64,000 bases of DNA. Source: an uncultured Chloroflexia bacterium. Lineage in GTDB: Bacteria; Chloroflexota; Dehalococcoidia; GIF9; UBA5629. Of the stretch, positions 1,698 through 57,045 are shown one piece after another. The notes below the pieces were generated by a model. That model was not told the origin of the DNA, ran no database searches, and saw only the letters and a list, made by a program, of their open reading frames with translations. The stretch's first letter is position 1; every line of letters starts with the position of its first letter. Made by a program: the position numbers and the translations under genes. Location of the stretch: assembly GCA_963848815.1 (NCBI GenBank), contig CAWKFY010000017.1, forward strand, positions 13,852 to 77,851. Reading direction: 5' to 3'.

Positions 1698-1738
1698 AAT
1701 TAACCTCCCTTACTCCCCATTATTAAAAAGAATAGGAA

Positions 1739-3073: not shown

Positions 3074-3116
3074 AGCATACCTCCAATCTTATTAGCTTTT
3101 ATCTAAATATCGACTA

Positions 3117-3995: not shown

Positions 3996-4001
3996 CTTTT
4001 C

Positions 4002-12301: not shown

Positions 12302-12766
12302 TTATGAACCATAGTTTACCTTGCTTACAATGTCGGTAAATGCTTCCAGAGCGCCGGAAAGCGTTAGTAGATCACTCATGTCCAGTGTTGACAGGCTTCT
12401 TTTAATCTCGTTTCGCATGATCTTTTTCCTGCCGGTAACAAAACGCCTGCCTTTCTCAGTAATAACTATTTTTTTAATCCTTTTATCAATACTATCAGGT
12501 TCACGTTGAGCATAACCCTTTTCGATCAGTTTATCCAGCAAAGAGGTCGTATTGGGCTTGGATATGCCCAGCCTGCGGCTTATCTCCGAGGTCTGCAAAG
12601 TGCCCAGTTTCATTATCATGGCCAGCGCATGGAACTGCATATTGCCCGGGTTAACTCCAGCTTTAGTATGAGCAACCTGAAATATTTTGCGATAGAAGAG
12701 CGGAAGAAATATAAACAGGCTGTCCACTATGCTATCGAGCTTAACGTCTTCCGGTGTCCTGGCCAT
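12302..12766 (-). CDS. MarR family transcriptional regulator
   Basis: Winged HTH: SEISRRLGISKPNTTSLLDKLIEKGYAQR..D..DKR...IVITEKG. Confidence 0.92.
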   Translation of the reverse strand: MARTPEDVKLDSIVDSLFIFLPLFYRKIFQVAHTKAGVNPGNMQFHALAMIMKLGTLQTSEISRRLGISKPNTTSLLDKLIEKGYAQREPDSIDKRIKKIVITEKGRRFVTGRKKIMRNEIKRSLSTLDMSDLLTLSGALEAFTDIVSKVNYGS

Positions 12767-12793
12767 CGATATAATATAAACTGCCGGATATTT

Positions 12794-25441: not shown

Positions 25442-26353
25442 ATGGGACAACTGGATGATATCGATAAAAAAATAATCGGCGTGCTAAGAACAAATGCTTA
25501 CATGAGCAGTATCGAGATGTCAAAACATATCGATATTTGCGCTTCAACCATCCGTCGCCGGGTAAATAAGCTCATAAAAAATGATGTCATACGTATACAG
25601 GCTGTTCAAATAAATCGCGTAAGAACATCTCTGACAGTTGGTATTCTGCTTAAAGTAGAAAACAGTGCAATCAGCCGGACGGCTGATCTATTAGCTGGCC
25701 AGAAGGAAGTAGGATTTATAACGTTGATCACGGGCTACTATAATATAGCCTGCCTTTGCTGGTTTGCATCTGTTCAATCATATTCCCGATTCCTAAACAC
25801 AATACTTTATCCCATGCAGGATGTGCTGGATACAGATACCTTAATTTGCACTAAATATGTTAAACACGCATCAATTAGACTCGATGATACGGTTGATTTA
25901 ACTGAACCGGCTAACAAAAAAGTCGACGATATCGATATGAAAATTATTGAAGAGCTCGAAAAAGATGCTCGTCAAAGCATGACAAGGCTGGCAAAGAACC
26001 TCAATATTAGCGCTCCTACTATCAAACGCAGAATAAAAGCACTATTAGACAATAACATTATCCGAATACTGGCTATACCCAACCTATGCACCGGAAAAAC
26101 AGTCGTGGTTTCCATAGCGCTGAAGGTCGAAAATAGCGCACTCAATAACATTGTAGACCGGCTATGCGATTTCGATGAAGTGCGGCAGGTTTTGTTGTTA
26201 TCAGGCACTTATGATATAAGTGTCTGGGCATGGTTTGAATCTATTGAAACCTTCTCGAAGTTCTTACAGAATGTTATTAATCCTCTGGAGGGAGTAGAAA
26301 AAAAGCTAGTTGCCATCCAAACTGAATTTAGGAAATGGACACACCAGCATTAA
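25442..26353 (+). CDS. Lrp/AsnC family regulator with tandem duplicated HTH-AsnC modules
   Basis: Two repeats: LDDIDKKII..L..NA...RRRVNKL and VDDIDMKIIEELEKDARQS...KRRIKAL, each followed by a ITGYYNI/LSGTYDI regulatory domain. Start placed at ATG 25442. Confidence 0.88.
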   Translation: MGQLDDIDKKIIGVLRTNAYMSSIEMSKHIDICASTIRRRVNKLIKNDVIRIQAVQINRVRTSLTVGILLKVENSAISRTADLLAGQKEVGFITLITGYYNIACLCWFASVQSYSRFLNTILYPMQDVLDTDTLICTKYVKHASIRLDDTVDLTEPANKKVDDIDMKIIEELEKDARQSMTRLAKNLNISAPTIKRRIKALLDNNIIRILAIPNLCTGKTVVVSIALKVENSALNNIVDRLCDFDEVRQVLLLSGTYDISVWAWFESIETFSKFLQNVINPLEGVEKKLVAIQTEFRKWTHQH

Positions 26354-26398
26354 CCATCGTATTCTGTTATGGCTATGTCCTGATATCAAAGGCTTCAA

Positions 26399-27761
26399 TC
26401 AGTGCGATATCTTCCAGGTCGTCCCTTTGGGCGTGTCCTCAATAGCTATCCCCATCTTGAGCAACTGGTCGCGCACCTCGTCGGCCTGCTTCCACTCTTT
26501 GGCTTTGCGGTACTGGTTGCGCTCGCTCTATCAGCTCCAGGATTTTCTCCTCTTGAGAGTGTTCAAGCTTTCTGGCCTCCTGCAGGGTAAAGCCGATCAC
26601 GCCGGCCAGCTCTTTAAGCATCTGCTGAGCGGGGCCGATGTCCATCCCCTTCTCGCTGCCGCGATTGATCTCACGCACCAGTTCGAACATGGCAGCCACG
26701 GCCTGCGGCGCGCTGAAATCATCGTCCATGGCCTCCATAAAACGCATCCTGTACGGCCCGGCGTCAAGTACTTCGCCGCCCGGCTTACCCTCCGCCTTGA
26801 TAGCCTGCTTCATTCTCTCGATGCCGGTTTCAGCAGCGTCGAGGGCTTCCTCACTATAGCGCAGCGGCATCCTGTAGTAGGAGCTTATGATAAAGAGCCT
26901 GATGGCGTCGGCGCTGTTGCGCTCCAGCGCCTGCTTGATGGTAACCAGGTTGCCCAGCGATTTGCTCATCTTGTCCGCGCCGAGCTGCAGAAAGCCGTTG
27001 TGCATCCAGATGCGCACGAAGGGCTCGACTCCGGTGAAACATTCCGACTGGGCCATTTCGTTCTCATGGTGCGGGAATACCAGGTCCTGTCCGCCGCCGT
27101 GAATATCCAGCGTTTTGCCCAGATGCTTGATGGACATGGCCGTGCATTCGATATGCCAGCCCGGACGGCCTTCGCCCCAGGGGCTGGGCCAGGCCGGCTC
27201 GCCCGGCTTGGCCGCTTTCCAGAGCGCAAAGTCCAGGGGGTCTTCTTTTTTCTCAGTCTCGGAAGTTTCGGTGACCCGCATGTCGTCCGCAGTCTGGTGC
27301 GTCAACTTTCCATAGCCGGGGAAGCTTTTTACCCGGAAATAAACGCTGCCGTCGTCCACCCGGTAAGCATGTCCCTTATCCACCAGGGTCTGGATGACCT
27401 GGATAATCATGGGTATTTCCTCGGTAGCCCGGGGATAAATCGTCGCCCTCTGGATATTAAGGGCGTCCATATCCGCGAAAAATTCGCCGATATATTTTTC
27501 CACCAGCTCTTTCCAGGGTATATGCCTCTCGTTTGAGCGGTTTATGATCTTATCGTCGATGTCGGTGAAATTCTGCACGTATTTGACCTGGTATCCCCGG
27601 TATTCCAGGTAGCGCCTGATGACGTCGAACGTTATATAGCTCAGCGCGTGGCCGAAATGACAGACATCATATACCGTAACCCCGCAAACATACATCTTAA
27701 CTTCGTTATCTTGGGGAGCAAACTCTTCCTTTTGGCCGGACAGGGTATTGAATATCTTCAT
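26399..27761 (-). CDS. cysS: Cysteine--tRNA ligase; frameshift near 26525
   Basis: [45 protein letters not shown]. The +1 frame continues [21 protein letters not shown]...[13 protein letters not shown]. Confidence 0.95.
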
Positions 27762-30495: not shown

Positions 30496-33015
30496 TTACG
30501 GATTGCTGTCGCTGAGCAGCATATTGCCCTCGCCGGGCAACAACTTGCTTTCTCCGCTCAGCAGTGCGGCGGTTTCAAGCTTGTGAATGACTATCTGCGT
30601 GCCGTCATAATCGACCAGCACCTTGGAGCCGCTCTCATATTCACCGCGCAGCACGTTCTCGGAAAGCTTGTCTTCCACCTCTTGCTGGATGACGCGTCGC
30701 AGAGGACGGGCGCCGTATTCAGGATCGTAACCTTTCTCGCCTAGAAAATCCCTGGCGGCTTCAGAAATCTCCAGCGTAATCTTTTTCTCCGCCATGGAGG
30801 ATACAGCCTCGCGCAGCATAAGGTCGACGATCTGGCGGATATGCTCCTTGGTGAGGGCATGGAAGACCACGGAGGCATCTATGCGATTCAGGAACTCCGG
30901 CCTGAATTTATTCTTCATCTCACGCATCACGATATCTTTCATCTTCTCGTAAGCGCCCTGGCGGGTTTTGACTTCATCAGCGTTAACGTTGAAGCCCAAC
31001 CCCTTATTCTTCTTGATCTCATCGGCGCCGACGTTAGACGTCATGACCATGATGGTATTGCGGAAGTCGACCCTGCGGCCTTTGGCATCCGTAAGGTGAC
31101 CATCATCCATGATCTGGAGCAGGATGTCGAACACGTTCTTATGCGCTTTCTCAATCTCGTCCAGCAGTATTACACAGTAGGGGGTGCGCCTGACGGCTTC
31201 GGTAAGCTGGCCTCCCTCTTCATAGCCGATATATCCCGGAGGAGCGCCCACCAGCCTGGCGACATTATGCTGTTCCATAAATTCGGACATATCCAGCCTG
31301 ACCATGGCATCTTCACTCTTGAACATGAATTTGGCCAGGGCTTTCACCAGAGCGGTCTTGCCCACGCCGGTCGGACCCAGGAAAATGAAGCTGCCGATGG
31401 GACGGCGTGCGTCCTTAAGGCCCGCCCGGGCACGGCGTACGGCCCGGGCGATGGTAATGATGGCTTCATCCTGGCCCACAATATCTTCATGCACCGCCTT
31501 CTCCATTTTGAGCAGGCGTTCCTTTTCATCCGTGGTGAGGCTGTCCTTGGGTATGCCCGTCCACATGCTGACAACCTCGGCGATGTCCTCTTCGGTCACT
31601 ATCGGGGTTTCCTTCTTCTGAGTATCCTGCCATTCCTGCTCCATGCTCTTGACCTTGTTCTGGAGCTGGACTTCCCTGTCGCGAAGCTCGGCAGCCATCT
31701 CATATTGCTGTGAAGCGATGGCATTGTCCTTGTCGCGCCTCAGGTTTTCCAAAGCCTTCTGCGCTTCGGCGATGCTTATGGGGACAACACCTTTCTTGAT
31801 CCTGACACGGGAAGAGGCTTCATCCATAATATCAATGGCTTTATCAGGAAGGAACCTGTCGGATATGTACCGTGCAGCCATAGAGGCCGCAGTTTGGAAA
31901 GCGTCATCATTAATAATTAATTTGTGATAGTCTTCGTAATGGTGCCGGATGCCTTTCAGGATAGCAACGGTCTGCTCTACAGTCGGCTCGGTCACCATGA
32001 CGGGTTGGAAGCGCCTCTCCAGTCCGGCATCTTTCTCGATATATTTGCGGTACTCGTCCAGCGTGGTGGCGCCGATGAACTGGATTTCGCCCCTTGAAAG
32101 CGACGGCTTCAGGATGTTGGAAGCGTCAACAGCCCCCTCTGCTGCGCCTGCGCCCACTATGGTATGCAGCTCATCGATGAAAACGATGCAGTTGCCTGCG
32201 CTTTTTATCTCGTCGATAACTTTTTTCAGCCTCTCTTCAAACTCACCGCGATACTTGGTGCCGGCGACCAGCGATCCTATATCCAGGGTTACCAGCCGTT
32301 TATTCCTGAGAGGTTCGGGGATATCTCCCGTAACGATCTGCTGGGCCAGCTTGGCCACGATGGCCGACTTGCCTACACCCGGCTCGCCTATCAGAGCGGG
32401 ATTATTTTTAGTGCGCCGGCTGAGGATCTGGATGATGCGTTCGCACTCCTTTTCCCTGCCGACGATGTTGTCCAGCTTGCCATTACGCGCCAGCCCGGTA
32501 AGGTCAACGCCCAGTTGATCCAGGATGGGAGTCCTGGCACCTTCCTTGGTGACAGCCCTGGCCTGGCCGCTGCCGGTATTGAGCAGCTTGTTGACCTCGG
32601 TCATTACACGGTCGAGGGTCACGCCCAGGCTCTCCAGCACACCCGCCGCCGATCCCTCACGTTCCCGCAACAGGCCCAGCAGGAGATGCTCTGTGCCTAT
32701 ATAGCTATGGTTCAGCCGCCTGGCTTCATCCACTGCCAGCTCGATAACTTTCTTGGCCCTGGGAGTGAGTCCCACCTCACTGGTATTGGGACGGCCGCCG
32801 CGGCCTACTATAAACTCAACAGCTGACCTCACCTTGCTCACGGCTACGCCGAGATTGGCAAGGACCTGGCTGGCAACGCTATCTTCCTCCGCTATAAGAC
32901 CGAGTAAAATATGCTCGGTATCGATATAATTGTGACCGAAATGCTGCGCCTCTTCCTGCGCACGGGTAAGCGCCCGGCGAGCACGCTCAGAAAACTTTTC
33001 AAATCTACTTGCCAT
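30496..33015 (-). CDS. clpC: ATP-dependent Clp protease ATP-binding subunit ClpC
   Basis: Clp N-domain repeats, GEPGVGKS, UVR middle domain, GPTGVGKT, FRPEFLNR, GARPLRR. Confidence 0.96.
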   Translation of the reverse strand: MASRFEKFSERARRALTRAQEEAQHFGHNYIDTEHILLGLIAEEDSVASQVLANLGVAVSKVRSAVEFIVGRGGRPNTSEVGLTPRAKKVIELAVDEARRLNHSYIGTEHLLLGLLREREGSAAGVLESLGVTLDRVMTEVNKLLNTGSGQARAVTKEGARTPILDQLGVDLTGLARNGKLDNIVGREKECERIIQILSRRTKNNPALIGEPGVGKSAIVAKLAQQIVTGDIPEPLRNKRLVTLDIGSLVAGTKYRGEFEERLKKVIDEIKSAGNCIVFIDELHTIVGAGAAEGAVDASNILKPSLSRGEIQFIGATTLDEYRKYIEKDAGLERRFQPVMVTEPTVEQTVAILKGIRHHYEDYHKLIINDDAFQTAASMAARYISDRFLPDKAIDIMDEASSRVRIKKGVVPISIAEAQKALENLRRDKDNAIASQQYEMAAELRDREVQLQNKVKSMEQEWQDTQKKETPIVTEEDIAEVVSMWTGIPKDSLTTDEKERLLKMEKAVHEDIVGQDEAIITIARAVRRARAGLKDARRPIGSFIFLGPTGVGKTALVKALAKFMFKSEDAMVRLDMSEFMEQHNVARLVGAPPGYIGYEEGGQLTEAVRRTPYCVILLDEIEKAHKNVFDILLQIMDDGHLTDAKGRRVDFRNTIMVMTSNVGADEIKKNKGLGFNVNADEVKTRQGAYEKMKDIVMREMKNKFRPEFLNRIDASVVFHALTKEHIRQIVDLMLREAVSSMAEKKITLEISEAARDFLGEKGYDPEYGARPLRRVIQQEVEDKLSENVLRGEYESGSKVLVDYDGTQIVIHKLETAALLSGESKLLPGEGNMLLSDSNP

Positions 33016-33164: not shown

Positions 33165-33285
33165 CCTCTGGCAGTGGCATATTTTCCCAAGGAATCCCTC
33201 CCTCAGTATCGTCTGCGCTGAAGCGTTTCACTTCCGTGTTCGGGATGGGAACGGGTGGTGCCGCCTCGCTCTAACCACCAGAGGA
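33165..33285 (-). rRNA. rrf: 5S ribosomal RNA (stand-alone)
   Basis: Minus strand TCCTCTGGTGGTTAGAGCGAGG...CCCGTTCCCATCCCGAACACGGAAGTGAAACG...GGGAAAATATGCCACTGCCAGAGG; conserved CCGAAC loop; ends pair as helix I. Confidence 0.97.
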
Positions 33286-33297
33286 CTAATGGAATAT

Positions 33298-33325
33298 AGT
33301 TTATAATAAGAGCATATGGTGTCAA
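33298..33325 (-). promoter_or_regulatory. Dedicated promoter for the 5S rRNA gene
   Basis: TTGACA (33320-33325), 16 bp spacer, TAAACT (33298-33303), ending 12 nt before the mature 5S 5' end. Confidence 0.7.
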
Positions 33326-33341
33326 ATAGCGTATGTGTAAT

Positions 33342-34885
33342 GTTACTGTGACTGATTTGTCGGTCTTGAGTTAGAGAGGCCTTGTAAAACATTATATCGC
33401 TATCCTGGTTAGAGATTTCAATATTTCAACCCAAGGACGGGCTGCATGTGGGCCAGATATCGCTGGCATTCCAACATTGAAATAACTCGTGTAATCATAT
33501 TTTATTGTACGATCGAGCACTCTCCTTATTTGTTTTTCCGGCATTTTTATAGATGTAGTTTCAGCGATGCGGAAGCACAGGCGATCCGCCAGAGTCCCTT
33601 CACGTATACTGATTCTCAGCCAGAGCATCCGGCGTATTCCCTGACGTGACCAACTCATGCCCTGATTCTTCATCCTTCGTACGATCAACTTGTCAATATT
33701 TCCCTCGATAGCCCCTGTTCTTCGTAAGGTAATTCCCTGTTGTCCCATGCTTTCCCGATAATCCTGCAATCCGGAGGCATTGGAACTGATATATTTGATC
33801 ACCTGCCTGATGTCTTTGGCCTTATCGTCTGGCGCCCGGTCTACCGCTTCTTTGAGCTGCTTAAGAGCGGCATCATGTTGGCCACAACTGCAATGATATT
33901 GAACCGACCGTAAGATAGCTCGATCATGCTTCAGTGCATGACAAAGAGCATGGTTGAGGTGATATCGGCATAGCTGATATTGGCCTCCGAAATAATCAAC
34001 ACCTTCTTTGATCCATGTTGCGCCGTCTCCACCGATGACGTATTGCGTCCCACCAAGATCGTATTTCTGGTGCAGTTTTAAGGCCATTCCTGTCCAGAAT
34101 CGATCAGTGCTTAATATGTCTGCATAAAGGGTCTTATTGACCGTGCTGTAACGGTCTTTGCCTACTTTCCGCCAGCTCTCATAGGCAATGCCCAGCTTTA
34201 CCTCAGCCCTACGTGCCGTTTCCCTTTGCAAGGGTAGCACAACGCCGTCCGCCTCGATAATCAGACAGCTCGCCTTCCTGCCTTCAGTCTGTTTCAACTC
34301 GCCAGTATCTTCAAACCAAGCCGCACTACGATCTGCATCATCTTGACTGTCGGCAATAGCCAATTGGACTAACCTGTGAATGGTTCTATAAGAAAGGCCG
34401 ATAGAAGTGGTTCTGTTTAGTACCTCAGCGCTTCTGCGGAAAGGCATCTCGGCCGCCAACCCGCATGCCAGCTCTTTCACAGCCAAGGTGGTGTGACGGT
34501 ATTTGCCCATACCCATCAATTCATCCAGCGGATATTGATATTTCCCGTCTCGCCCTCGATATTGTCTCCTGGTAACCATGATCGGTCCAAGCCTGGTCCG
34601 ATACCAGGTGCTTCGCTTATGAGCGACTACTAAATCAGCAGGCCTATGCTGTTGTATCAGCGAGTCGATCTGCTCAAGTACGTTTCCAAATGCCTTACGT
34701 GCGCATTCAACTGCTTTGTCGAATAAATCCTTCTCCATTGAGACTACGATCTGTTTGAGTTCCTCAGCGTTTTTGGTTAGACTGGTTTTCAAGAGAATCT
34801 CCTTTATAAATTTATTGGTGGTAGATTTATTTTGTGAGGTCTCTCTTGCTTTTTGCAACCTGACCGACAAAACTGTCACTGTATC
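33342..34885 (-). mobile_element. ISLre2-family insertion sequence (1544 bp)
   Basis: 24-bp imperfect terminal inverted repeats (33342-33365 GTTACTGTGACTGATTTGTCGGTC and 34862-34885; 20/24 match); 9-bp direct repeat ATGTGTAAT at 33333-33341 and 34886-34894. Confidence 0.9.
33392..34792 (-). CDS. ISLre2-family (UPF0236) DDE transposase
   Basis: IEADG, IGGDGATWI, LCRYHL, GAIEGNI..RRMK..GMSWS..G. Likely TTG start at 34792 behind an AAGGAG RBS. Confidence 0.88.
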   Translation of the reverse strand: MKTSLTKNAEELKQIVVSMEKDLFDKAVECARKAFGNVLEQIDSLIQQHRPADLVVAHKRSTWYRTRLGPIMVTRRQYRGRDGKYQYPLDELMGMGKYRHTTLAVKELACGLAAEMPFRRSAEVLNRTTSIGLSYRTIHRLVQLAIADSQDDADRSAAWFEDTGELKQTEGRKASCLIIEADGVVLPLQRETARRAEVKLGIAYESWRKVGKDRYSTVNKTLYADILSTDRFWTGMALKLHQKYDLGGTQYVIGGDGATWIKEGVDYFGGQYQLCRYHLNHALCHALKHDRAILRSVQYHCSCGQHDAALKQLKEAVDRAPDDKAKDIRQVIKYISSNASGLQDYRESMGQQGITLRRTGAIEGNIDKLIVRRMKNQGMSWSRQGIRRMLWLRISIREGTLADRLCFRIAETTSIKMPEKQIRRVLDRTIKYDYTSYFNVGMPAISGPHAARPWVEILKSLTRIAI

Positions 34886-34915
34886 ATGTGTAATAAAGCA
34901 GTAAATAATCGAGAG

Positions 34916-35959
34916 TTATATTTTCTTATATTTAGTAGGATCAGTCGGAGGAATATAATAAGTTGCCACGACAGGGCTTGGCCCCAATGTCTTTGATCTT
35001 AAAAATGCAGAGTGATTTGTGGGTGCGAGATGTACTTCGAAAGGAGGGTATATTCGCTTAAACCTACCAAGAATTCGATTTCTCAGGATATCCATTTTAG
35101 AAGCTGCCTCAGATGAGATAAAAAATACAGGACAATTTGGATCTTGGCAATTGCAAGGCCTTATCTCTCCCTGCCTTAGACAATCATCATATGTTATCCT
35201 TAAAAGATTGAGTTCCTTTACAATTTCAGATAAAGCTTTCTTAAATCTCTGTTTTTTTATTTGGTGTCTGCTCGGTATCCTTCGTATTTCTGTACCGTCC
35301 CTTAAACGATGAATACCTGTATTCAATGCCTCAATCGTATCGGTAATTGCTTTCTTAAACGCTGGAATTGAACTTTCACTTTGGAAAGGGGTGTAGAAAG
35401 CCGGTCTATCGAATAATTCTGCCATTAGAGCTAAAATCTCGACATCGTTTAATAATTTAAGCTGCTCAATAAATGAACTCAAATCAGATGGAGACTCTGG
35501 AAACTCTTCACCTTGCACAAATCGTTTGAGTAGAGATTCGGCTTCTGCTCGTAGCCGCTCTTCAAACTCTTGCCCAGACCATATACTACAACTACGAATA
35601 CCTTTTTTCGCAACGAAATTTCTTATTTTATCACGTAGTCGCGCTGAAATATTTCCTCCTAAAACAAGAATAAATTCATCTGGAACCCCAAACGGACCGG
35701 ATACAATAAGGTCCACATCTTGCACGACCTTAGAAATTGTTAACCTTTTCCTATTTGCACATTGAATACAGACTTTGTTGTACTTGCTATTACCAGATTC
35801 TCCCCAAATGTCACGTCCCAAATCTGTCCCAAGTTGTCCATACCAATCTAGGGAGCGCCATCTCCGGGTACGCAGCATATAAGCAAAAACAAGTCGTTCA
35901 AATTGTATACCACCAAAATCATCAAAATGCACTTTTTGAACCAGTATTGCGGGACTCAT
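34916..35959 (-). CDS. Orphan restriction endonuclease-like protein (Mrr/PD-(D/E)xK-like N-domain plus unknown C-domain)
   Basis: FERLVFAY...G.DLGRDI...CIQCANR...WSGQEFEERL resembles Mrr-type nuclease folds; AT-rich; no methyltransferase nearby. Confidence 0.6.
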   Translation of the reverse strand: MSPAILVQKVHFDDFGGIQFERLVFAYMLRTRRWRSLDWYGQLGTDLGRDIWGESGNSKYNKVCIQCANRKRLTISKVVQDVDLIVSGPFGVPDEFILVLGGNISARLRDKIRNFVAKKGIRSCSIWSGQEFEERLRAEAESLLKRFVQGEEFPESPSDLSSFIEQLKLLNDVEILALMAELFDRPAFYTPFQSESSIPAFKKAITDTIEALNTGIHRLRDGTEIRRIPSRHQIKKQRFKKALSEIVKELNLLRITYDDCLRQGEIRPCNCQDPNCPVFFISSEAASKMDILRNRILGRFKRIYPPFEVHLAPTNHSAFLRSKTLGPSPVVATYYIPPTDPTKYKKI

Positions 35960-36022
35960 TACAATTTACCCCTCTTTATCAGTATAAATATGTTCATTCA
36001 GCTCTAGGAGAATTGTCAAATA

Positions 36023-36214
36023 TCAAGAAAAGAATCTGGCTTGAGCGGGCTGGCCTTTCTTATAAGGGATGCCCAGGTGTTCATAGGCCAGGCGCGTGGC
36101 CGTGCGTCCCCGGGGGTCCTGTCGAGAAATCCAAGTTGCAGCAAATACGGGTCGTATATGCCTTCGATGGCGTCGGACTCCACTTCCAGCTTGCCCATAG
36201 CTTCGAGTGTAACC
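36023..36214 (-). pseudogene. ruvB: Displaced, diverged ruvB 3'-end fragment with a 108-nt in-frame internal deletion
   Basis: 36053-36100 is identical to 44518-44565 (48 bp) and 36181-36214 is identical to 44755-44788 (34 bp). The segment between has 9 substitutions and 1 indel. ruvB 44647-44754 is absent. Restored C-terminus KKGQPAQARFFS* versus [11 protein letters not shown]. Confidence 0.9.
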
Positions 36215-36218
36215 TCTC

Positions 36219-36888
36219 TCACCGCCACCAGCGTATGTTTTTCCTGGGGATTTCTTTAACGTCTGGCGGTGGTTCCAGGGCCTTTGTCACTTTATGCGCC
36301 ATATAACTGATGGGTTTTGTTAACGGATGCAGAGGTCCGAGCCTTTGTCCGAAACTCTGGGCTGTAAGGTCGGTGTAAAGGCTTAACGTCTGGGCTGCCG
36401 TCAAAAAATCCCAGCAGACGAAAATCTCTTCGGCAATCCCGAAAGGCATGCTTAGAGGTATAAAGCCCCGCGCGTACTCGACAGCCCATACCCCGTTGGT
36501 GAAATTCATGGCGCGCGCCTGGCCCGGACCGACGTAGATGCGGTCACCGGGTTTATAAATCGTCTTCTCGAACTGACCTTCCGCGTAGTACCAGGTCTCT
36601 CCATCAATAACAGTATCCCAGAATCCGGCGAAATGACGTCCGGAATGGCCTTCAGAGCCGATGGGAGTTCCCCAAATCATGATATATTCGGTCAGTGGAA
36701 GCATAGTAGAGCTTCATCTGGATCATCGCGCCTCCGGCGATGCTGTATATCCAGGGCTGCGAGAAATCGAGCACTTTCGGATAGTGGGTTGCAAGAGCAT
36801 TGGCGAAAGCATCGAACATCTGCGGCTTGGGCATACCCAGGCACTCCATAGCGCACTTGTGAACGATATCAGGATCAAATCTGGCCAT
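36219..36888 (-). CDS. ERG2/sigma-1 receptor family protein (C-8 sterol isomerase-like); frameshift near 36697
   Basis: Joining ORF 36652-36897 with ORF 36219-36704 gives W...IAGGAM.QM.LYYASLTEYIMIWGTPIGSEGHSGRH...WAVEYARGFIP.SMPFG, the ERG2/SIGMAR1 signatures including the conserved EY.RG glutamate. Confidence 0.88.
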
Positions 36889-36914
36889 TGGCATCAACCT
36901 CTTTCTCTGGTGAT

Positions 36915-37727
36915 TTATACAACGTCATCGAACGGGCCGAACATCTTTTCCATCGATCCGCTTACGATACGAATAGCGCGGGCGCGGGACACCATTTTCC
37001 CCATGAAAAAGTATCCCAGCCGGTTAGATCTCCCCGCGATGAGACTTGGTCGTTTCCCCAGCGCTTTCAACGCCTCGGTGACCGTCGGCTTTACGTCCAT
37101 CACTTTCACGAACCGCGCCGGCTTCGGCTCGTTGGCATCCCAGCCGGGTGTTTTCGTTGACCCCGCCATGAACCCGAGCACGTCGACCCCATACCGGCCC
37201 AGCTCGTACCAAAGGCTCTCGGCAATAATCAGATTGTAGGCTTTGGTCGCCGCATAGTTGGCGCAATAGGCGGTCCCGTACATCGCCGAAGCAGAAGAAA
37301 GAAAAATGATACCTCCCCGCCTCCGCTCGGCCATCTTTCTGCCGAAGTGATGGGCCAGGATGAGCCCCGCCCGCGTGTTGACGTGCAACTGCTTCACAAG
37401 CTGGTCAACGGAATGATTGAGAAAGGGACGGACTTTTGACAAACCCGCATTATTCACCAGCAGGCCAATCTCCAAAGAGTCGGTAACAGGAGTGATCTCT
37501 TTAAGTATGTCCTCCCGGCTAAGGTCGAGCGCTATTGTCCGGACTTCTACGCCGTAGTCTTTCTTTAGCGCGTCCGCCCTGGCTTTGAGCAAATCAGCGT
37601 TAGTGGCAACTAGAATCGTATTCAGGCCCCGTTCAGCACATTGGCGGGCGAATTCGGCGCCGAGCCCCCGTGAAGCGCCGGTGATCAATGCCCAGGGACC
37701 GTATTTTCTTAAGAAAGAAGATGGCAT
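36915..37727 (-). CDS. SDR family oxidoreductase (17beta-HSD/KAR-like subgroup)
   Basis: YGPWALITGASRGLG, LLVNNAG, SS, YAATKAY catalytic motif. Confidence 0.9.
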   Translation of the reverse strand: MPSSFLRKYGPWALITGASRGLGAEFARQCAERGLNTILVATNADLLKARADALKKDYGVEVRTIALDLSREDILKEITPVTDSLEIGLLVNNAGLSKVRPFLNHSVDQLVKQLHVNTRAGLILAHHFGRKMAERRRGGIIFLSSASAMYGTAYCANYAATKAYNLIIAESLWYELGRYGVDVLGFMAGSTKTPGWDANEPKPARFVKVMDVKPTVTEALKALGKRPSLIAGRSNRLGYFFMGKMVSRARAIRIVSGSMEKMFGPFDDVV

Positions 37728-37992
37728 TTTTACTCTTTAAAAGATTAATACCTGGGGCCTCATAGTATTTAATACTTTTTAGCATGCTTTGTAAACCTCG
37801 TTTCGCTGGGAGGTATAAAAATAGAGAAATGGTAGCGAAAATTATACTTTCATGAGATGCAAGAATTAAGCATATTTAAAACCTTTAGAAAAGTTCTTGC
37901 TTTTATTCGGCACGGTCTAAAACGCTGTATAATGGTCAGAAATCCAACCTTTTCTACTGCAAGCGCCAACAATTCATCGGAGGGTAAGTGGT

Positions 37993-38771
37993 ATGACAGT
38001 TAAAATATGTAGCGCCGCTGAAGCTATATCTGTGATAAAGGATGGCGACCACGTAGCTTCTTATATGTGGTCATATGCGGCACGCCCGGGTATTTATATC
38101 GTGCCCTGGCTGCAAGCACGCCACGAACCTGACCCTGTATATCGAGAATTTCTTGCCCGGTCCGCCGGGCACTGTGGAGATTGGCTTCCCTGATCCCACC
38201 ATGCTTCTTGCCCACGTGAAGAAGATCGTTACACCTTTTCTTGGCGGCCGTTTCATCGGCCGCATCGGGAATAGCGGCAGATTTCATGGGCGATCTTATC
38301 CACAGCGGGAAGCTTGAAACGGAGGTGACTACTCACGGCGTTTTCATGGAGCGTTTGCATGCAGGCGCTATGGGGCTGGGCGGTTTTTATAGCCCGATAG
38401 GTGTAGGGACCATCGTGGCAGCCGGCAAGGAGACAAGAGTTATCGACGGCAAGGAGTATATATTTGAAAAGTCGATCAGCCCTGATGTGGGACTGATCAA
38501 AGCTGCCAAGGCGGACAAACTTGGAAATCTGGTTTACCACGGTTCTGCCCGGGGAGCTAACCCGGTCATCGCAATGGCATCAAAGGTGAATATTGTTGAG
38601 GTTGACGAAATAGTTGAGCCGGGCGAATTGGACCCGGAGCTAATAGTTACCCCGGGAATATACGTGGACTACCTGGTAAAAATACCCGAGGACGATATCG
38701 CAGGCGCCAAGAACCTTAAAGAGCTCGTCAAATTCGGTGTAGCGCTGGTGAATACGAAAGGTGTGAAATGA
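37993..38771 (+). pseudogene. 3-oxoacid CoA-transferase subunit A, three frameshifts
   Basis: Pieces in successive frames: SAAEAISVIKDGD; GTPGYLYRAL; NLTLYIEN; HGVFMERLHAGAMGLGGFYSPIGVGT...KAAKADKLGNL...VTPGIYVD. Shifts near 38070, 38125 and 38270. Confidence 0.75.
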
Positions 38772-39436
38772 AAGAGAGACTGGATGAAATAGTGATGGCA
38801 ATGAGAGCAGCCCGGGAATTGAAGCCCGGAGATTACTGCAACCTCGGCCTCGGCATGCCGCAAATGTGCGCATCCAATGTTCCGGATGGCGTGTACATGT
38901 CCAGGCGGAGAATGGCGTTATCGGTTATGGCCCGCTTGTAACGACCGACAATGTTGATGAAGCTGACGTCGGTCTGATCGATGCCGGAGGAAAATTCTAT
39001 ACTCCTGCTCCCGGCATGTGCTTTTTTGACATGGTTACATCCTTTGCCATGATCCGAAGCGGCCGGCTTATATCAATACTGGGCGGGCTCCAGGTATCCG
39101 AAACTGGCGACCTGGCCATTCACAGCCCAGCGAGCAGACGAGTATCCGCAGATCGGGGGGAGCATGGATTTGGCGTGGGGCGCCAAAGAGGGTCATCGTA
39201 GCAATGACGCATACCAATAAAGATGGGAAACCCAAGCTGGTCAAAAACTTGACCTACCCGCTGACTGCGGCCAAATGCGTTAATTTCATAATTACCGACG
39301 TGGCAGTAATTGAAGTGACAGACCAGGTGGACTTGTCCTTAAGGAGTTTGCCCCCGGATGGACCGTTGATGAGATCAAATCCTTGACAGAGGCCCGTCTC
39401 TCTGTGGCAGCCGATGTTAAGGTGATGGAGCTATAA
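38768..39436 (+). pseudogene. 3-oxoacid CoA-transferase subunit B, four frameshifts
   Basis: MRAARELKPGDYCNLGLGMP; QAENG; LQVSETGDLA; PQIGGSMDLAWGA; VIVAMTH; IITDVAV; LKEFAPGWTVDEI. Shifts near 38895, 39136, 39186 and 39327. Confidence 0.75.
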
Positions 39437-39621
39437 CCACTTTATCGGGCATGTCCCCTCCGTTATGATCAACCCCACGCCACCCCTGGCACGCTGCTCG
39501 TAATGGGATATCATCAGATCGGTGACGTTGCCATAGGGGGCATAACGATACGGTTGCGGATTTTCCTGGAGCCAAGCTTTCCGGGCTCCAACAACCTTGT
39601 ATAATCAGCTTTATTCAGCAT
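39430..39621 (-). pseudogene. N-terminal remnant of an NADH:flavin oxidoreductase (old yellow enzyme family)
   Basis: MLNKADYTRLLEPGKLGSRKIRNRIVMPPM, then a shifted frame GNVTDLMISHYEQRARGGVGLIITEGT; truncated where it meets the CoA-transferase B stop. Confidence 0.8.
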
Positions 39622-39659
39622 CTCAATACTTCCGAAGGCTAATCTCCTGTTCATCTCAT

Positions 39660-40511
39660 CTATGGCAAGCCAGCACCTGGCACTTCGACCCTCAGGCACT
39701 CGACGCGGGATGCTGGCTTGGCCTTGGCTTCCTCCGGAACCGAGCTGTCAGCAGTAAGTATGAATAGCGTGCACCTGTCTGGTCCTCCAAGCATGCATGC
39801 GAACGCTTGCCGGTCCAAATCAATTGCATGAAGTACTTTGCCACCTTCAGTAATCCTTACGACCTGCTGTGTGCTGGGGCTGGCAATCCATACCGTGTTT
39901 TCCGCGTCAAGACATATACCATCCGGCATAGCAGGGGCTGTATTCGCCCAGACATGCCGTCCAGTCAACGAGCCGTCATTTTCTATATTAAATGCGGTCA
40001 GTCTGTTGCCCCAGGTTTCTGCAACGATAAGTGTACTGCCATCAGGTGTAATCACCGAGCCATTGGGGAAACGCATGTCCTCCGCTACGACCTTGGTCGT
40101 TCCATCTGGTTTAACCAGCACCAGGTTGGCTGGGTCAGGATTGAAGCTAACTACCCAGTCCGAGCCGAAGTTGCCGATGTAGGCATCGCCGTTGGAGTTG
40201 ACCACCATGTCATTGCAATGGTAGGTGGCTAAACTGCTCAAGTCTGCAACTTCCACCAGCCCCTGCGGATCCAGCCGCAGTAGACGACGGTCCAGCATTG
40301 ACACGATTAGCAAACGCCCGTCCGGCAGCCACCCCAATCCCGAGGGATGATTGGGAACCTTAGCAACATCCTCCACCTTCCCTTGCATATCAACTTTTAT
40401 CACCTTATTACCGTAAAAATCTGATAACCACAATTTGTTCTCATGCCAGCGCGGCACTTCCCCAAAATATAGACCGTCAATGAGGATCTCTGTTTTCGTC
40501 TGCATACCCAC
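39660..40511 (-). CDS. SMP-30/gluconolactonase/LRE family protein
   Basis: FGEVPRWH, PSGLGW, CNDMVV, FPNGSVITPDG, PDGICLDAE, ACMLGG. Confidence 0.92.
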   Translation of the reverse strand: MGMQTKTEILIDGLYFGEVPRWHENKLWLSDFYGNKVIKVDMQGKVEDVAKVPNHPSGLGWLPDGRLLIVSMLDRRLLRLDPQGLVEVADLSSLATYHCNDMVVNSNGDAYIGNFGSDWVVSFNPDPANLVLVKPDGTTKVVAEDMRFPNGSVITPDGSTLIVAETWGNRLTAFNIENDGSLTGRHVWANTAPAMPDGICLDAENTVWIASPSTQQVVRITEGGKVLHAIDLDRQAFACMLGGPDRCTLFILTADSSVPEEAKAKPASRVECLRVEVPGAGLP

Positions 40512-40899
40512 CTCCTTACGTCACTAGATGTGTTTGTTTTCAACTATAGTACATAATCCTTGAGCTATTAACAATCCACGGTAACATTTTCTCGGATGGC
40601 CCTCTGTGAATCAGTCGGGACGATTTGAACAAACACTATGACCAAATGGTGACTCCTTACCCCTCCAGCATTATTTCAGGTGGAGTTCGACTCTCCCTCA
40701 CTCACTGGAAGACGTCCCAGTACATGATTAAATCAAGTCTCACCTTCGGATTGCAAGTCTGACAACTCAAGTCCTCAAAGCATGCAAAGCATTGACAGCG
40801 CAGCGCTGTTATGAAAAAATACGGCAGCCAACGCTCAACGATTTATGATTTTGATGCCCTTGATTGACGTGTCGCCGATTTGTAGGAGGTTGCCAGAAC

Positions 40900-42927
40900 A
40901 TGAATACCAAGTCGTTTTCTAAGACTCTGATTTCCCTGGTGGTGTTGGCATCATTGCTATTGACGGCACTGGCTGTATTGCCCGGTAGTGCCATGGCAAA
41001 CCTGGCTGCAACCTCGTGGCCCATGTTTCAGCATGACCTGATGCACAGCGGCCGGAGCCAATATATTGGGCCACAGACAAATAACGTTAAGTGGTCTTAT
41101 CAGACCGGCAATATAGTAGGTTCCTCGCCGGCCATCGGCGCGGACGGAACTATATATGTGGGCAGCTATGATAATAATCTTTATGCCATCAATCCTAATG
41201 GCACCAGGAAATGGACATTTCCAACGGGTAATGCTATTTGGGGCGCTCCGGCAATAGGCAGCGACGGCACCATCTATGTGGGCAGCGATGATGACTATAT
41301 TTATGCCATTACGGATAACGTGACTGCGGGTATCCAAAAGTGGCGATTTGGAACGCTCGACCATATTGAGTCCTGCCCGGCTATAGGCGGAGATGGCACC
41401 CTGTATGTCGGCAGTGATGATGGCTATCTTTATGCTATTACGGATAACGGGGCTGCGGGTATTCAGAAGTGGCGATTTGGACCACTGTATAATTCGATTT
41501 CCTCTTCGCCGGCCATCGGCAGCAACGGCACAATATATGTTGGCTCCTGGAACAACTATATTTATGCCATTACGGATAGCGGGACTGCGGGCAATCAGAA
41601 ATGGCGATTCCAAACTGGCGGAGACGTCGTATCTTCGCCGGCCATCGCCAGCGACGGCACCATATACGAGGGGAGCAATGACGCCTATATTTATGCCATT
41701 ACGGATAACGGGACTGCGGGTAATCAGAAATGGCAATTCCAAACGGGCGGCGACGTTCTGTCTTCGCCGGCCATCGGCAGCGACGGCACCATCTATGCAG
41801 GTAGCCTTGACGATTACCTTTATGCCATTAATCCCAACGGTACTCAGAAGTGGTCATACAGGACGGGAGGATTGATTGTGTCTTCGCCGGCCATCGGCAA
41901 CGACGGTACGGTATACGTTCACTCGGAGGACGGCAATCTTTATGCCGTCAGCCCTAATGGCACTCTTATGTGGTCTTATATGACCGGTCAACCCGCCAGA
42001 GGTCCCATGAATTTCGATTCTTCGGCGGCAATCGGCAGCGACGGCACGTTATATATCGGTGCATTTAACGGAAAGGTCTATGCCTTCAAGAGTGCTGCCG
42101 TCGGATCCGCAACAGCCTCTGTCAACACAAGCCTGGGTATTGTTAACTTTAGTACCAGCGCAGGATCAATCTCGGGCCTTGCCAATACGCCTTCGTCAAG
42201 CATGCCGTGTTCAAGCGGAGGATATATCTTCCCCTATGGCATGTTCTCTTATAACATAACCAACCTGGCCCCGGGTGCCACTGCTACCATTACAATTACC
42301 ATTCCTAAGCCATGCCCATGGGCTCAAAGGTATTTAAATGTCAGAACGGCAGCCTGACCGACTTCAGCCAATATGCACAGCAACCAGACCCCAACACCTT
42401 CATACTAACCCTTAAGGACGGCGGACAGGGCGATGCCGACGGCCAGGCTAACGGCACCATCGTCGACCCCTGCGGCCCAGCCTTCCTATTCAGCAATCCG
42501 CCGCAGTCATCCTCGGCGCAGGTTACAATGTTGGCCACAGAATCCAGCAGCCATAGCAAATATCACGGTGCAAAGCGCTTCGCTATCCAATGCAAAAGTC
42601 GCACCCGGCGAACCCGTTACCGTTACAGCAAATATAGCCAATAAAGGTACGGCCAATGGCTCCGCTCAGGTCAAGCTCTATATCAACGGACAGGAAGAGG
42701 CCCATCAGGGCATCACGCTATCCAGCGGCAGCCGGGCACCCATAAAATTCACCGTCAGCCGCAATGAGTCCGGCACCTATTCCGTCTATGTGGGCAGCAT
42801 ACCTGCCGGCACCTTCGAGGTCGACCAGTTCACCGATCCCAACCTTATCCTCTATATCAGCGGCGCATTGATACTCCTGGCACTGGTCGGCGGAGTCATT
42901 TTCATAGCGATGAGAAGGCACCAATAG
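40900..42927 (+). CDS. Surface protein: signal peptide, 8-blade PQQ-like beta-propeller, choice-of-anchor U-like domain, CARDB-like domain and C-terminal TM anchor; frameshifts near 42310 and 42530
   Basis: AGGAGG RBS, WPMFQHD..HSG, eight SSPAIGxDG-type blades; LTLKDGGQGDADGQANGTIVDP in the next frame; then TVTANIANKG... and a hydrophobic tail ending RRHQ*. Confidence 0.82.
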
Positions 42928-42950
42928 CAGTAAAGTTAGTTTAACCAACG

Positions 42951-42981
42951 GCCGCAGCTATAAATGCTGCGGCTTTGTTTT
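42951..42981 (+). terminator. Intrinsic terminator
   Basis: GCCGCAGC-tataaat-GCTGCGGC followed by TTTGTTTT. Confidence 0.8.
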
Positions 42982-43110
42982 GGACACCCATTGGAATAAT
43001 TGATGGGTTTTGTTTAGATATGATATCCTAACAATTAGTTAACATTGTCAATCTGCACAGCAGTATTGCGAGGAAGCAAGGGATATTAAACCTGTATATA
43101 AGGGAGGAAA

Positions 43111-44307
43111 ATGAAAAAACTGTTGTTGGTAATGATCTCAATCTTGATCTTAACGTGCGGATGCATATATATTCCATCAAACCCTACTACAACTACTACT
43201 ACCGCCACACCCGAACAAACGCCGGTGGTAAGTTCGTTCAGCGCCAGCCCGCCGTCCATTGCGTCCGGCGGCAGCTCCACGCTTAGCTGGAGTGTCACGG
43301 GAGCAACAAGCGTCAGCCTGGACAATGGGATAGGAAACGTGGCTGTCAACGGCACGAGGGCGGTAGCGCCTATAGCAAGTACGATATATACTTTAACGGC
43401 TTCCAATTCATCTGGCAGCACTAATGCCACAACGCAGGTACTGGTATCCGGCACAAGCACACCTACGACACCCGCTACTCCATCTGCAACAGAGGCACCC
43501 ACGATCAATTCATTCAGCGCATCTCCCAGCAGCATCTCAGCAGGCGGCTCATCAACTTTGAGCTGGAGCGTAGCCAATGCAACTTCAGTAAACATCCAGC
43601 CAGGGATTGGCAATGTAGCTGCCAACGGGTCCATGGCGATATCGCCGGGAAGCTCAACCGTATATGCGCTTACAGCTACCAACTCAGGCGGCAGTAGTCA
43701 AGCAAGCACCCAAGTGATTGTAGCCTCCAGCACCCCCATAACTCCCGTCACACCCCTATCTCCAGGGATACACCTACTACCAGGGATAGCAGGCCTACTC
43801 ACAACAACTGTATATGATTTTGTAGCCAAAGCGCCAAATGCTTCCTGGGCGAGCGGCGGTGGAAGCCTGACCTTTCCGGGCGGTGACACAGACAATAGTG
43901 GATTTGCACTCTGGCGCAACAACGTCACCTTGGAGGATGACACCGTCTATACGCAGGTACTGGAAACACATCCGCAGTGGATAACCGGCGGCTGGATCGA
44001 GGGGGCTTACACAGAACTTGCCAGCTCGTACACCGTACAATCCAGCGATCATTTCTATTCAAAAGTCGGATTCATTAAAGGCGCCGCTGCCGGGAATGTA
44101 AGATTCAGGGTAATGATACGCACTGATACCGGCAACACCTGGATTGCAGATGTCCCCAAGTTATATAACGGTTCGCTGTCAACAATTGACATTCCTCTTT
44201 CAGCTTATGCGGGGCACAAGGCAGACTTCATTTTGAGAGTTGAAGCCAATAACACCAGCGCCACGCAGGATTGGGCCACCTGGATAGGCACCTCGATTAC
44301 ACGATAG
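43111..44307 (+). CDS. Putative lipoprotein with two Ig/PKD-like repeats and a C-terminal beta-sandwich domain
   Basis: Signal ending LTCGC; two repeats of P.I/V.SFSASP.SI..GGSSTLSWSV..ATSV....GIGNVA.NG...V.P..ST.Y.LTA.NS.G; Thr/Pro linkers; GGAGG RBS. Confidence 0.8.
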   Translation: MKKLLLVMISILILTCGCIYIPSNPTTTTTTATPEQTPVVSSFSASPPSIASGGSSTLSWSVTGATSVSLDNGIGNVAVNGTRAVAPIASTIYTLTASNSSGSTNATTQVLVSGTSTPTTPATPSATEAPTINSFSASPSSISAGGSSTLSWSVANATSVNIQPGIGNVAANGSMAISPGSSTVYALTATNSGGSSQASTQVIVASSTPITPVTPLSPGIHLLPGIAGLLTTTVYDFVAKAPNASWASGGGSLTFPGGDTDNSGFALWRNNVTLEDDTVYTQVLETHPQWITGGWIEGAYTELASSYTVQSSDHFYSKVGFIKGAAAGNVRFRVMIRTDTGNTWIADVPKLYNGSLSTIDIPLSAYAGHKADFILRVEANNTSATQDWATWIGTSITR

Positions 44308-44490
44308 CATCAGAACAAATATTACCCGGGATATCCAAAAAGATGACACTCCGCCTGCGCTAACTGAAATACTACGCAGCGCCTCATTTTCCTTTAGCTG
44401 TTTACTGAGGCTGCCGGCTACTTGTCTACGTGGGCCGTGCTTTAATAATGATACGTTGTCAAGCAATACAACTTATTGTGCGAGATAAAC

Positions 44491-45528
44491 TTAGAAGAGG
44501 CTGCCCTGCGGGGTTGTGCCTTTCTTATAAGGGATGCCCAGGTGTTCATAGGCCAGGCGCGTGGCGGTGCGTCCCCTGGGGGTCCTGTCGAGAAACCCCA
44601 GTTGCAGCAGATACGGCTCGTAGACGCCTTCGATGGTATCGGACTCTTCGCTGATGGACGCCGCTATGGTATCCAGTCCGACCGGGCCGCCTTCGAACTT
44701 TTCAATGATCGTCCTGAGGACCTTGCGGTCTATCTCATCCAGCCCCAGCTTGTCCACTTCCAGCTTGCCCATAGCTTCGAGTGTAACCCTGCTATCCACC
44801 ACCCCGTTGGCCTTGACCTGGGCATAGTCACGGATGCGTTTCAAGAGGCGGTTGGCCACGCGGGGCGTTCCCCTGGCCCGGCAGGCGATCAGCTCGATGC
44901 TTTCCTGATCGATCTTTAATTTAAGTATGGCGGCGGAACGCTTGATGATGGCGCCGATGGATTCAACATCATAAAAATCGAGCCGGTGGACAGAGCCGAA
45001 GCGGTCCCTCAGGGGAGAGCTCATGGCGGCATAACGCGTGGTGGCGCCGATCAGAGTGAAGCGGGGTAAATTTAATCGCAGGCTCCTGGCGCCGGGGCCT
45101 TTGCCCAGGATGATATCCAGGGCATAGTCTTCCATGGCCGGGTAAAGTATCTCTTCTACGATCCTGCTCAGGCGGTGGACCTCGTCGATAAAGAGCACGT
45201 CGCCTTTTTGCAGGTTGGTCAGTATGGCTGCCAGGTCGCCCGGCCGCTCGATGGCAGGGCCGGAGCTGACCTTGATATTCACTCCCATCTCGCCGGCGAT
45301 GATGAAGGCCAGCGTCGTTTTACCCAGGCCGGGAGGCCCGTAAAGCAGGATATGGTCTATGGCCTCGCCGCGCTTCTGGGCAGCCTTAATGCCGATCTCA
45401 AGGTTATCCTTGACCTTCTGCTGGCCGATAAAATCGGCCAGCCGCCTGGGCCTCAGATTGGCATCCAGGGAACTATCCTCCGGGCTAAGCTTGCCCGAGA
45501 CTATTCTGGATGATTCCTCTTCCTGCAT
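44491..45528 (-). CDS. ruvB: Holliday junction branch migration helicase RuvB
   Basis: [56 protein letters not shown]. Confidence 0.98.
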
Positions 45529-56232: not shown

Positions 56233-57045
56233 ATGGCAATTATAGTCGGAGTGCGCTTCACCCAGGCGGGTAAAATATACAATTTTGATACAGCCGGCTT
56301 GAGTCTGAACCTGAATGACCTGGTAGTGGTTGAAACCAACCGGGGCCAGGAGCTGGGAAAGGTCGTGATAGCTGCCAAAGAAATTGCGACCGAGGAGAAC
56401 GCCGAACCCTATAAGCCCATCATCCGCATGGCCACGCCGGAAGACGTTTCACAGGCGGAGCATCAGAGAGGAAGGGCGCGCAAAGCACTTTCCAAAAGCA
56501 AGGAAATGATAGAAAGCCTGAACCTCCCGATGAAGCCCATCTATGCCCAATATAATCTCGACGGCAGCCATCTCATCGTGTTCTTTTACTCTGAGAAGAG
56601 GATCGATTTCCGCGAGCTGGTACGCAAGCTGAGCCACGAGCTGAGGACGCACGTGGAACTCAGGCAGGTAGGCGCACGTGACGAGGCCAAGTTGATCGGA
56701 GGGGTGGGCAAGTGCGGCTGCCAGCTATGCTGTGTATCATTCCTGAATGAATTCGTGCCCGTTTCCATTAAGATGGCCAAGGAGCAGGATATCGCCCTCA
56801 ATCCCATGAAAACTTCGGGGCTGTGCGGACGGCTGCTTTGCTGCCTGGGTTATGAATACGATCAATATCGCGACATGAAATGCAAATTGCCGGATATAGG
56901 CCAGGAAATCCAGACCAAGATGGGAAAGGCCAAGATAGTGGGAAGGAACGTGATTAAATCAACGTTTGTGGCCGAGCTGGAAACCGGCGTGACTATTGAA
57001 GTCCCCATTAGCGAAGCTGTCGTGATAAATCCGTCCCGGACTTAA
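56233..57045 (+). CDS. ricT: PSP1 domain protein RicT/YaaT
   Basis: FY.SEKRIDFRELV..L...RTHVELRQVGARDEAK..GGVGKCG..LCC, SGLCGRLLCCL.YE. Confidence 0.9.
   Translation: MAIIVGVRFTQAGKIYNFDTAGLSLNLNDLVVVETNRGQELGKVVIAAKEIATEENAEPYKPIIRMATPEDVSQAEHQRGRARKALSKSKEMIESLNLPMKPIYAQYNLDGSHLIVFFYSEKRIDFRELVRKLSHELRTHVELRQVGARDEAKLIGGVGKCGCQLCCVSFLNEFVPVSIKMAKEQDIALNPMKTSGLCGRLLCCLGYEYDQYRDMKCKLPDIGQEIQTKMGKAKIVGRNVIKSTFVAELETGVTIEVPISEAVVINPSRT

Follow-up and report, generated by a model that had tools for sequence, protein, structure and literature searches.

The window, the whole 64,000-nt stretch of DNA analysed here, lies within an 82.7-kb contig (C17) of a 75%-complete MAG (G000) and carries the 3' end of ruvB twice: once in an intact gene and once in a fragment (the stub, 36023-36214, minus strand) that aligns to the 3' end of the intact copy, which lies 8.2 kb upstream of it (Table 1). 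In five relatives (G001, G003 and G005 of the same genus, g1, to which G002 and G004 also belong, and G018 and G049 of the neighbouring genus g14), about 40-57 nt separate the ruvB stop from a 5S rRNA promoter, after which come a stand-alone 5S gene and clpC; that ruvB abuts the 5S promoter in all five indicates that the site was originally empty. At the same spot G002 has a DUF2971 gene, and G004 has a TIR_2 gene together with a DUF7508 gene. The gap of G000 holds 11.2 kb, arranged from ruvB as a spacer with a relic promoter, an 8.2-kb island, the stub, ORF347, an insertion sequence (IS) and the working 5S promoter; the island is missing at the equivalent site of the relatives. Because the flanks are the same, the cargo is absent or varied among the relatives and the insertions in G000 are nested, the ruvB-5S gap is regarded as a cargo hotspot. 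As to the character of this cargo, G004 holds TIR_2, G002 holds DUF2971 and ORF347 of G000 is restriction-endonuclease-like, while the 8.2-kb island is metabolic or surface-related.

Table 1. Features of the ruvB-5S gap, listed from ruvB towards the 5S rRNA gene in window coordinates.
Feature	Position	Strand	Description
Intact ruvB	44491-45528	-	345 aa; protein 95-96% identical to same-genus RuvB; genus-type tail
ruvB part absent from the stub	44647-44754	-	Exactly 108 nt, 36 codons
Native spacer and relic 5S promoter, TTGACAACGTATCATTATTAAAGC	44439-44490	-	Homologous to the sequence after ruvB in G002 and to the g14-type 5S promoter
Cargo island, 8.2 kb	36248-44438		ERG2-like gene, SDR, broken CoA-transferase pair, lactonase, PQQ beta-propeller gene, 398-aa repeat protein
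Upstream extension of the stub	36215-36247	-	Weak ruvB homology over about 33 nt; 16/32 match; P about 0.009 (shuffling)
42-nt identical tract (8 + 34 nt)	36173-36214	-	Bears G000-private GTTACA; holds the deletion junction between 36180 and 36181
Diverged patch	36130-36172	-	8 substitutions in 43 nt (81% identity)
Near-identical tract	36101-36129	-	Single synonymous change at 36101; 1 nt lost between 36111 and 36112; has TTTCTC and a Thr codon, both private to G000
48-nt block	36053-36100	-	Identical to ruvB 44518-44565; bears a G000-private Pro codon (CCT)
Stub tail	36023-36052	-	9 diverged codons and a TGA stop (QPAQARFFS, stop); 13/24 match to the intact tail
-35 box copy of the 5S promoter, TATTTGACAAT	36012-36022	-	Directly 3' of the stub stop
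ORF347	34916-35959	-	Restriction-endonuclease-like; low GC (about 38%); 63 nt downstream of the stub; weak PADLOC PDC-M58A match
ISLre2-family IS	33333-34894		IS 33342-34885, 1544 bp; NCBIfam match; 9-bp target duplication ATGTGTAAT
5S rRNA gene and working promoter	33166-33329	-	Gene 33166-33282, promoter 33298-33329; Rfam RF00001, 93 bits; far edge of the hotspot

The intact gene is of its genus right up to its end. The tail of its product, KKG.TPQGSL[FW], is the type found in all relatives of genus g1 and in some neighbouring genera, and past the stop of the gene 38 nt show homology to the spacer of G002 and lead into a decayed -35/-10 pair. The presence of a genus-type tail, a native spacer and a relic promoter at the intact gene means that the island starts after ruvB and not inside it, at an edge about 38-52 nt past the ruvB stop, near 44439-44452, and the start at 44517 within ruvB that the initial annotation had assumed has to be abandoned. 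Judged from these sequence comparisons, the resident ruvB is shown to be native through to its end. In G002 itself, the start of contig C13 (L040, bases 1-328) falls within ruvB, at a point of the 34-nt block that corresponds to window 44780, and the first 250 ruvB codons are missing from this 98%-complete assembly, which may indicate a repeat or variant at the same position.

The stub, for which the intact ruvB of the same genome served as reference, spans about codons 236-345 of ruvB minus 36 codons, and together with its upstream extension forms a 228-nt mosaic repeat of the gene in direct orientation. Its segments were aligned by hand; a MAFFT alignment mis-placed the 34-nt block. From the letters alone the initial annotation had recognised two blocks identical to ruvB, of 48 and 34 nt, separated by nine substitutions, and on realignment the coordinates of both blocks hold (the 34-nt block, 36181-36214, matches 44755-44788 with no mismatch), as does the number of substitutions. 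Its statement that 36 codons were removed at a 2-nt microhomology is likewise borne out by the 108 nt absent from the stub and the GA/TC microhomology at the junction. The divergent tail that it described is real, but that tail is not readable in one frame, a 1-nt deletion having been missed: between 36111 and 36112 CCCCCAGGGG has become CCCCCGGGG, and the actual continuous reading frame of the stub runs through RTPGDARPRAW to a different end. Since this deletion breaks the frame, the stub is not one open ruvB frame and cannot encode the quoted tail, which appears as KKGQPAQARFFS followed by a stop when the ruvB frame is restored; the deletion could be an assembly error. In type this tail is nearer to the GQ..QA tails of other genera than to the intact tail. 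On its 3' side, the 9-10 nt of the adjoining -35 copy are the same as those that precede the 5S gene in G000 and its relatives. On the other side, the upstream extension is probably the site of a novel joint, and a short AT.CCCAGG similarity was noticed by eye near 36247, where this joint would lie.

Identity between the stub and the intact gene changes from one segment to the next: 16/32 in the extension, 42/42 in the 34+8 block, 35/43 in the patch, 76/77 plus a 1-nt deletion in the next tract and 13/24 in the tail. Over the same five segments the intact ruvB is 78-95% identical to its own genus (86-95% in the patch region), and the values for G018, from another genus, are 66, 86, 77, 69 and 58%. 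The extension, patch and tail of the stub therefore look like an allele at roughly genus-level distance; the eight states of the patch are private to the stub except for one synonymous GAC, which is common to G002. The similarity of the two near-identical tracts goes far beyond what such an allele would give; they also bear states private to G000, and thus require recombination or gene conversion between the copies, or a mosaic formed in one event. Relatives show 5-7 differences from the 48-nt block over 47 positions. Two perfect runs of this length have a probability of about 0.0095 if the differences were spread uniformly, and the contrast is far stronger against the outer parts with about 50% identity. 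The mosaic pattern calls for recombination, and natural transformation can yield mosaic, discontinuous patches of donor DNA in a single event (PMC13344027). Substitutions private to G000 along ruvB (5 in the 78-nt tract, against 4.3% overall) gave no readable direction of conversion.

The nature of the nine substitutions between the two blocks bears on where they arose. Averaged over mutational paths, six are synonymous and three are replacements; the replacements T>A, V>I and E>D of the initial annotation stand, and its count of five synonymous changes does not. Synonymous changes are in modest excess (P 0.012-0.032 under random mutation, varying with the transition bias), which supports the idea that much of the divergence of the stub arose in a working gene. 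All three replacements fall on residues identical in all 20 relatives read, and these changes at invariant residues, together with two deletions, show that part of the divergence is later decay. The earlier proposal that the stub diverged as a functional ruvB of another lineage is thus retained in part, in that a different allele, the synonymous excess and a tail of another genus's type all agree with it, and has to be qualified where decay is concerned. Its alternative, that the stub is the displaced resident allele, fits poorly: it is the intact gene that has the genus-type tail, the G002-like spacer and the relic promoter, and the tail of the stub is not genus-like.

The cargo around the stub was assigned, as far as the island genes are concerned, by Pfam, NCBIfam and PHROGs scans. 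At the stub end of the island the ERG2-like ORF (window 36219-36340) extends about 40 codons past its Dehalococcoidia homologues and ends at a TGA inside the ruvB-derived extension, which its end (stop 36219-36221) overlaps out of frame; the overrun may stem either from a frameshift or from a lost native stop. The C-terminus of this ORF was considered as a marker of a truncating joint and dropped, since a frameshift could explain the 40-aa extension. On the other side of the stub, ORF347 shows 43-47% identity to genes on proteobacterial plasmids, from Ralstonia, Bradyrhizobium and Achromobacter, and one of these genes is annotated as a restriction endonuclease; it gave no match to Pfam or NCBIfam, and no homologue was found among 77 genomes of the family or in phages. 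The IS, of which three further copies (99-100% identity) lie on contigs C19 and C20 of G000, is separated by a few bases from the working 5S -35 box, on its upstream side. This box (TTGACA with its context) occurs three times in the gap, in the relic promoter (44439-44462), beside the stub (36012-22) and in the working promoter (33298-33329), and each insertion seems to have landed at the 5S promoter and regenerated it. Promoter and terminator scans around both ruvB copies returned nothing above the shuffled background.

Searches for the machinery and the source of the insertion were largely negative. Six-frame searches with PF00589 and PF00239 found no tyrosine or serine recombinase, intact or remnant, on the whole of contig C17, and the Pfam, NCBIfam and PHROGs scans found none among the island ORFs. 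In contrast, tRNA-flanked islands on contigs C20, C24 and C38 of the same genome have integrase genes beside tRNA-Val, tRNA-Gly and tRNA-Pro, respectively. Tandem islands of the classical kind, bounded by partial tRNA copies, were seen at tRNA-Val (56693-56768) and tRNA-Met (117682-117756) on C20, tRNA-Gly (61393-61467) on C24 and tRNA-Pro (31555-31631) on C38; tRNA-Met has up to five or more partial copies, with no tyrosine integrase gene found near them. Exact-protein look-ups of RuvB and of the ERG2-like protein returned no record, and a donor search of metagenome and genome collections with the core of the 48-nt block and the back-translated stub tail gave only a chance match in Janthinobacterium. 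The clpC/5S flank has no divergence step that would mark a homologous crossover, so any crossover there must fall within the promoter or the 5S gene. Each copy of the ruvB end carries adjoining intergenic and promoter sequence and so looks like chromosomal DNA, not like the attP of an element.

We propose, at roughly even odds of being right, that a related lineage of Dehalococcoidia supplied a second ruvB allele and that the stub is its non-functional 3' end, trapped by homologous-plus-illegitimate recombination at the hotspot, partly homogenised and now decaying. Chromosomal DNA of a relative would have recombined in at the hotspot, with one end joined by homology and the other illegitimately. 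It would have brought in the donor ruvB end with the beginning of the donor 5S promoter and, most likely, the neighbouring ORF347. The illegitimate one of the two joints would have formed at about 36247, beside cargo already in place, so that the donor ruvB end was trapped and the resident end was not replaced. Two tracts of the stub may then have been made identical to the resident gene by gene conversion, unless they are mosaic patches of the same event. The stub, being unselected, would subsequently have lost 108 nt and 1 nt and gained the three replacements at conserved residues; that the IS inserted beside it later is shown. No dedicated recombinase is called for in the proposed history, and the -35 box of a 5S promoter after the stub stop is what would be expected of a piece of chromosome and not of an element attP. 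The stub may go with ORF347 on its other side and not with the 8.2-kb island.

Several points count against this proposal, among them that the searches found neither a donor lineage nor an ORF347 homologue in the family, that the clpC/5S flank has no divergence step and that gene conversion left no readable direction. Canonical homology-facilitated illegitimate recombination also usually deletes recipient DNA and leaves no duplicate (PMC3240628), which is a further argument against; with an anchor on the 5S side, the second copy of ruvB can have come from the donor. A mirror-image history, in which the later arrival is the island, bringing a fresh ruvB end that displaced an end imported earlier, takes the same number of steps.

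The main rival, a single crossover, we consider possible but unlikely. In this Campbell-type scheme a circle made of a ruvB 3' segment and the 8.2-kb island, perhaps an excised or re-circularised chromosomal fragment of a relative, integrated by one RecA-dependent crossover within the 48-nt tract or a 78-nt near-identical one, leaving the homology segment as direct repeats on either side of the island. Both copies would then be hybrids, the upstream part of the stub coming from the circle and its tail with ORF347 from the old chromosome, and the repeats could excise the island again. Where the 48-nt block ends, identity falls sharply, from 100% to about 50%, which is what such a crossover would give, and the deletion and the frameshift both lie upstream of that block, in the part that would be free to lose function. 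In E. coli conjugation, moreover, most products of this kind are single crossovers of re-circularised fragments that duplicate 109-950 bp of homology (PMC3240628). However, the scheme divides the sequences awkwardly, because the old chromosome would need the tail foreign to the genus whereas the circle would supply the genus-type tail, the G002-like spacer and the relic promoter. The intact copy is genus-like throughout and the stub is unlike the genus on both sides, a poor fit to reciprocal hybrids, and the identity of the 34-nt block would not come from one crossover, though conservation could account for it.

An origin within the genome, by duplication of its own ruvB 3' end when the cargo inserted and subsequent decay with occasional gene conversion, is very unlikely. 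The states private to G000 in the identical tracts agree with it, and the three replacements at conserved residues together with two or more deletions are pseudogene-like. Uniform decay, however, cannot produce outer parts of about 50% identity beside tracts of 99-100%, and neither the synonymous excess nor a tail that is still a plausible RuvB tail of another type agrees with such an origin.

Integration by an integrase, with the ruvB 3' end as attB and the two copies as attL and attR of an island whose integrase is lost or acts in trans, is more improbable still. It is recommended by the direct repeats that flank an island at the 3' end of a gene, by the empty site in the relatives, by the same repeat geometry at several integrase-bearing tRNA islands of G000 and by the precedent of the Dehalococcoides ssrA islands. 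Against it stand the lack of a recombinase or its remnant on the contig, the repeat, which is no short exact core but a mosaic of 228 nt, and the native spacer with the relic promoter (about 38-52 nt) between the intact gene and the cargo, which places the repeat away from the island edge. Second matches to the C-terminal domain of RuvB are also rare (4 of 401 genomes of the class), so the ruvB tail does not commonly serve as a docking site. An artefact of assembly or polishing, that is, a chimeric join with the ruvB of a second strain or a consensus pulled by mis-mapped reads, has a similarly slight chance despite the incompleteness of the MAG, in view of a 108-nt deletion that a working second-strain ruvB would not have, the lack of any common sequence between ruvB and the end of the island from which a graph mis-join could arise, diverged stub flanks that would anchor reads properly, and the assembly of all four copies of the 1.5-kb IS (99-100% identical) inside contigs, which suggests long reads.

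The proposed capture of a second allele has relatives among known systems, none of which it matches in full. Homology-facilitated illegitimate recombination (HFIR) was first described in Acinetobacter and S. pneumoniae. As in insertion-duplication and HFIR (PMC3240628), foreign DNA lies beside a homologous anchor, a partial direct copy of the anchor sits by the insert and no dedicated recombinase is needed. Unlike those cases, the ruvB duplicate is natural and old, belongs to a different allele, is mosaic with the resident gene and is nested in at least three successive insertions. Cargo and defence hotspots flanked by core genes have been described in the pangenomes of E. coli and Pseudomonas, and the ruvB-5S gap resembles them in its fixed flanks (ruvB, and 5S rRNA with clpC) and in being empty or holding different single defence-like genes in relatives; it differs in that a stub of the flanking gene is left inside, that the site lies between a stop codon and an rRNA promoter and that the -35 box itself is duplicated. 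The phages e14 and 21 integrate at icd, and ssrA genomic islands of Dehalococcoides were reportedly described by McMurdie and colleagues in 2011. In both, as at the present locus, a conserved gene has an island at its 3' end and a direct repeat of this gene end bounds the island; the ssrA host also belongs to the same class. Whereas both rely on an integrase and a defined short core, the ruvB site has no recombinase, its repeat is long and mosaic, and its gene end and spacer are native. At rhs and CDI loci, C-terminal displacement of the kind said to have been reported by Jackson and colleagues in 2009 leaves the old gene end downstream as an orphan after a new end and cargo have recombined in, much as here. 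Unlike those polymorphic toxins, whose new tips are selected, ruvB is a housekeeping gene, and we know of no benefit from an exchange of its tail.

The stub is thus a real recombination scar of a known kind and not a new mobile element, and taken alone it is ordinary. Its interest lies in the indication that an uncultured Dehalococcoidia lineage recombines with its relatives and so swaps cargo at one fixed site, the gap that separates ruvB from a stand-alone 5S gene, and that such exchange can leave allelic gene stubs that are then gene-converted with an essential repair gene. RecA-mediated excision of the island between the identical blocks, raised in the initial annotation, is plausible in principle. 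Perfect repeats of 48 and 42 nt can confuse assembly, binning and variant calling, and in principle allow loss of the island.

Further pieces of RuvB came to light elsewhere in the class. Two contig ends of G234 (C83:1-285, L072, and C182:1-165, L074) carry overlapping pieces of the RuvB C-terminal domain, and a lone RuvB-like stretch of 40 aa lies apart from ruvB on contig C255 of G180 (26353-26472, L075); all of these may be additional ruvB stubs. A weak RuvB-like match at the end of contig G018:C224 was set aside: the protein is RuvB-C-like, high-GC and unrelated.

The stub also adds to displaced gene tails without recombinases seen in G000, at mutS and at a hydrogenase-like gene. A general scheme can be imagined in which conserved gene tails serve as portable homology arms for recombinase-free capture in Dehalococcoidia, and units of tail and cargo, excised by RecA between direct repeats, pass from one relative to another, re-insert at the same tail and so build arrays; we hold it to be decidedly unlikely, and the same applies to counting three mutS tails, the hydrogenase-like gene tail and the ruvB stub as its instances in G000. 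If it were true, the ruvB stub would be one working docking site and not an accident. On contig C13 of G000, mutS (1546-4137, plus strand) is followed downstream by extra copies of its tail at 10584-10631, 12747-12787 and 14201-14275. They comprise the last 14-25 codons at 85-88% nucleotide identity, with their own stops, and in two cases a co-oriented cargo gene ends 17-35 nt before the copy. No recombinase of the tyrosine or serine type was found on that contig beside the displaced mutS tails. On contig C20, the 3' end of a 407-aa ORF with about 75 nt beyond it (125303-125508) is repeated 7.2 kb on at 132565-132771 (and at 131878-132002) with 90% identity, and the C-terminus of this ORF, DPCVSCSTHMLEVKFK, resembles by eye that of a NiFe-hydrogenase large subunit.
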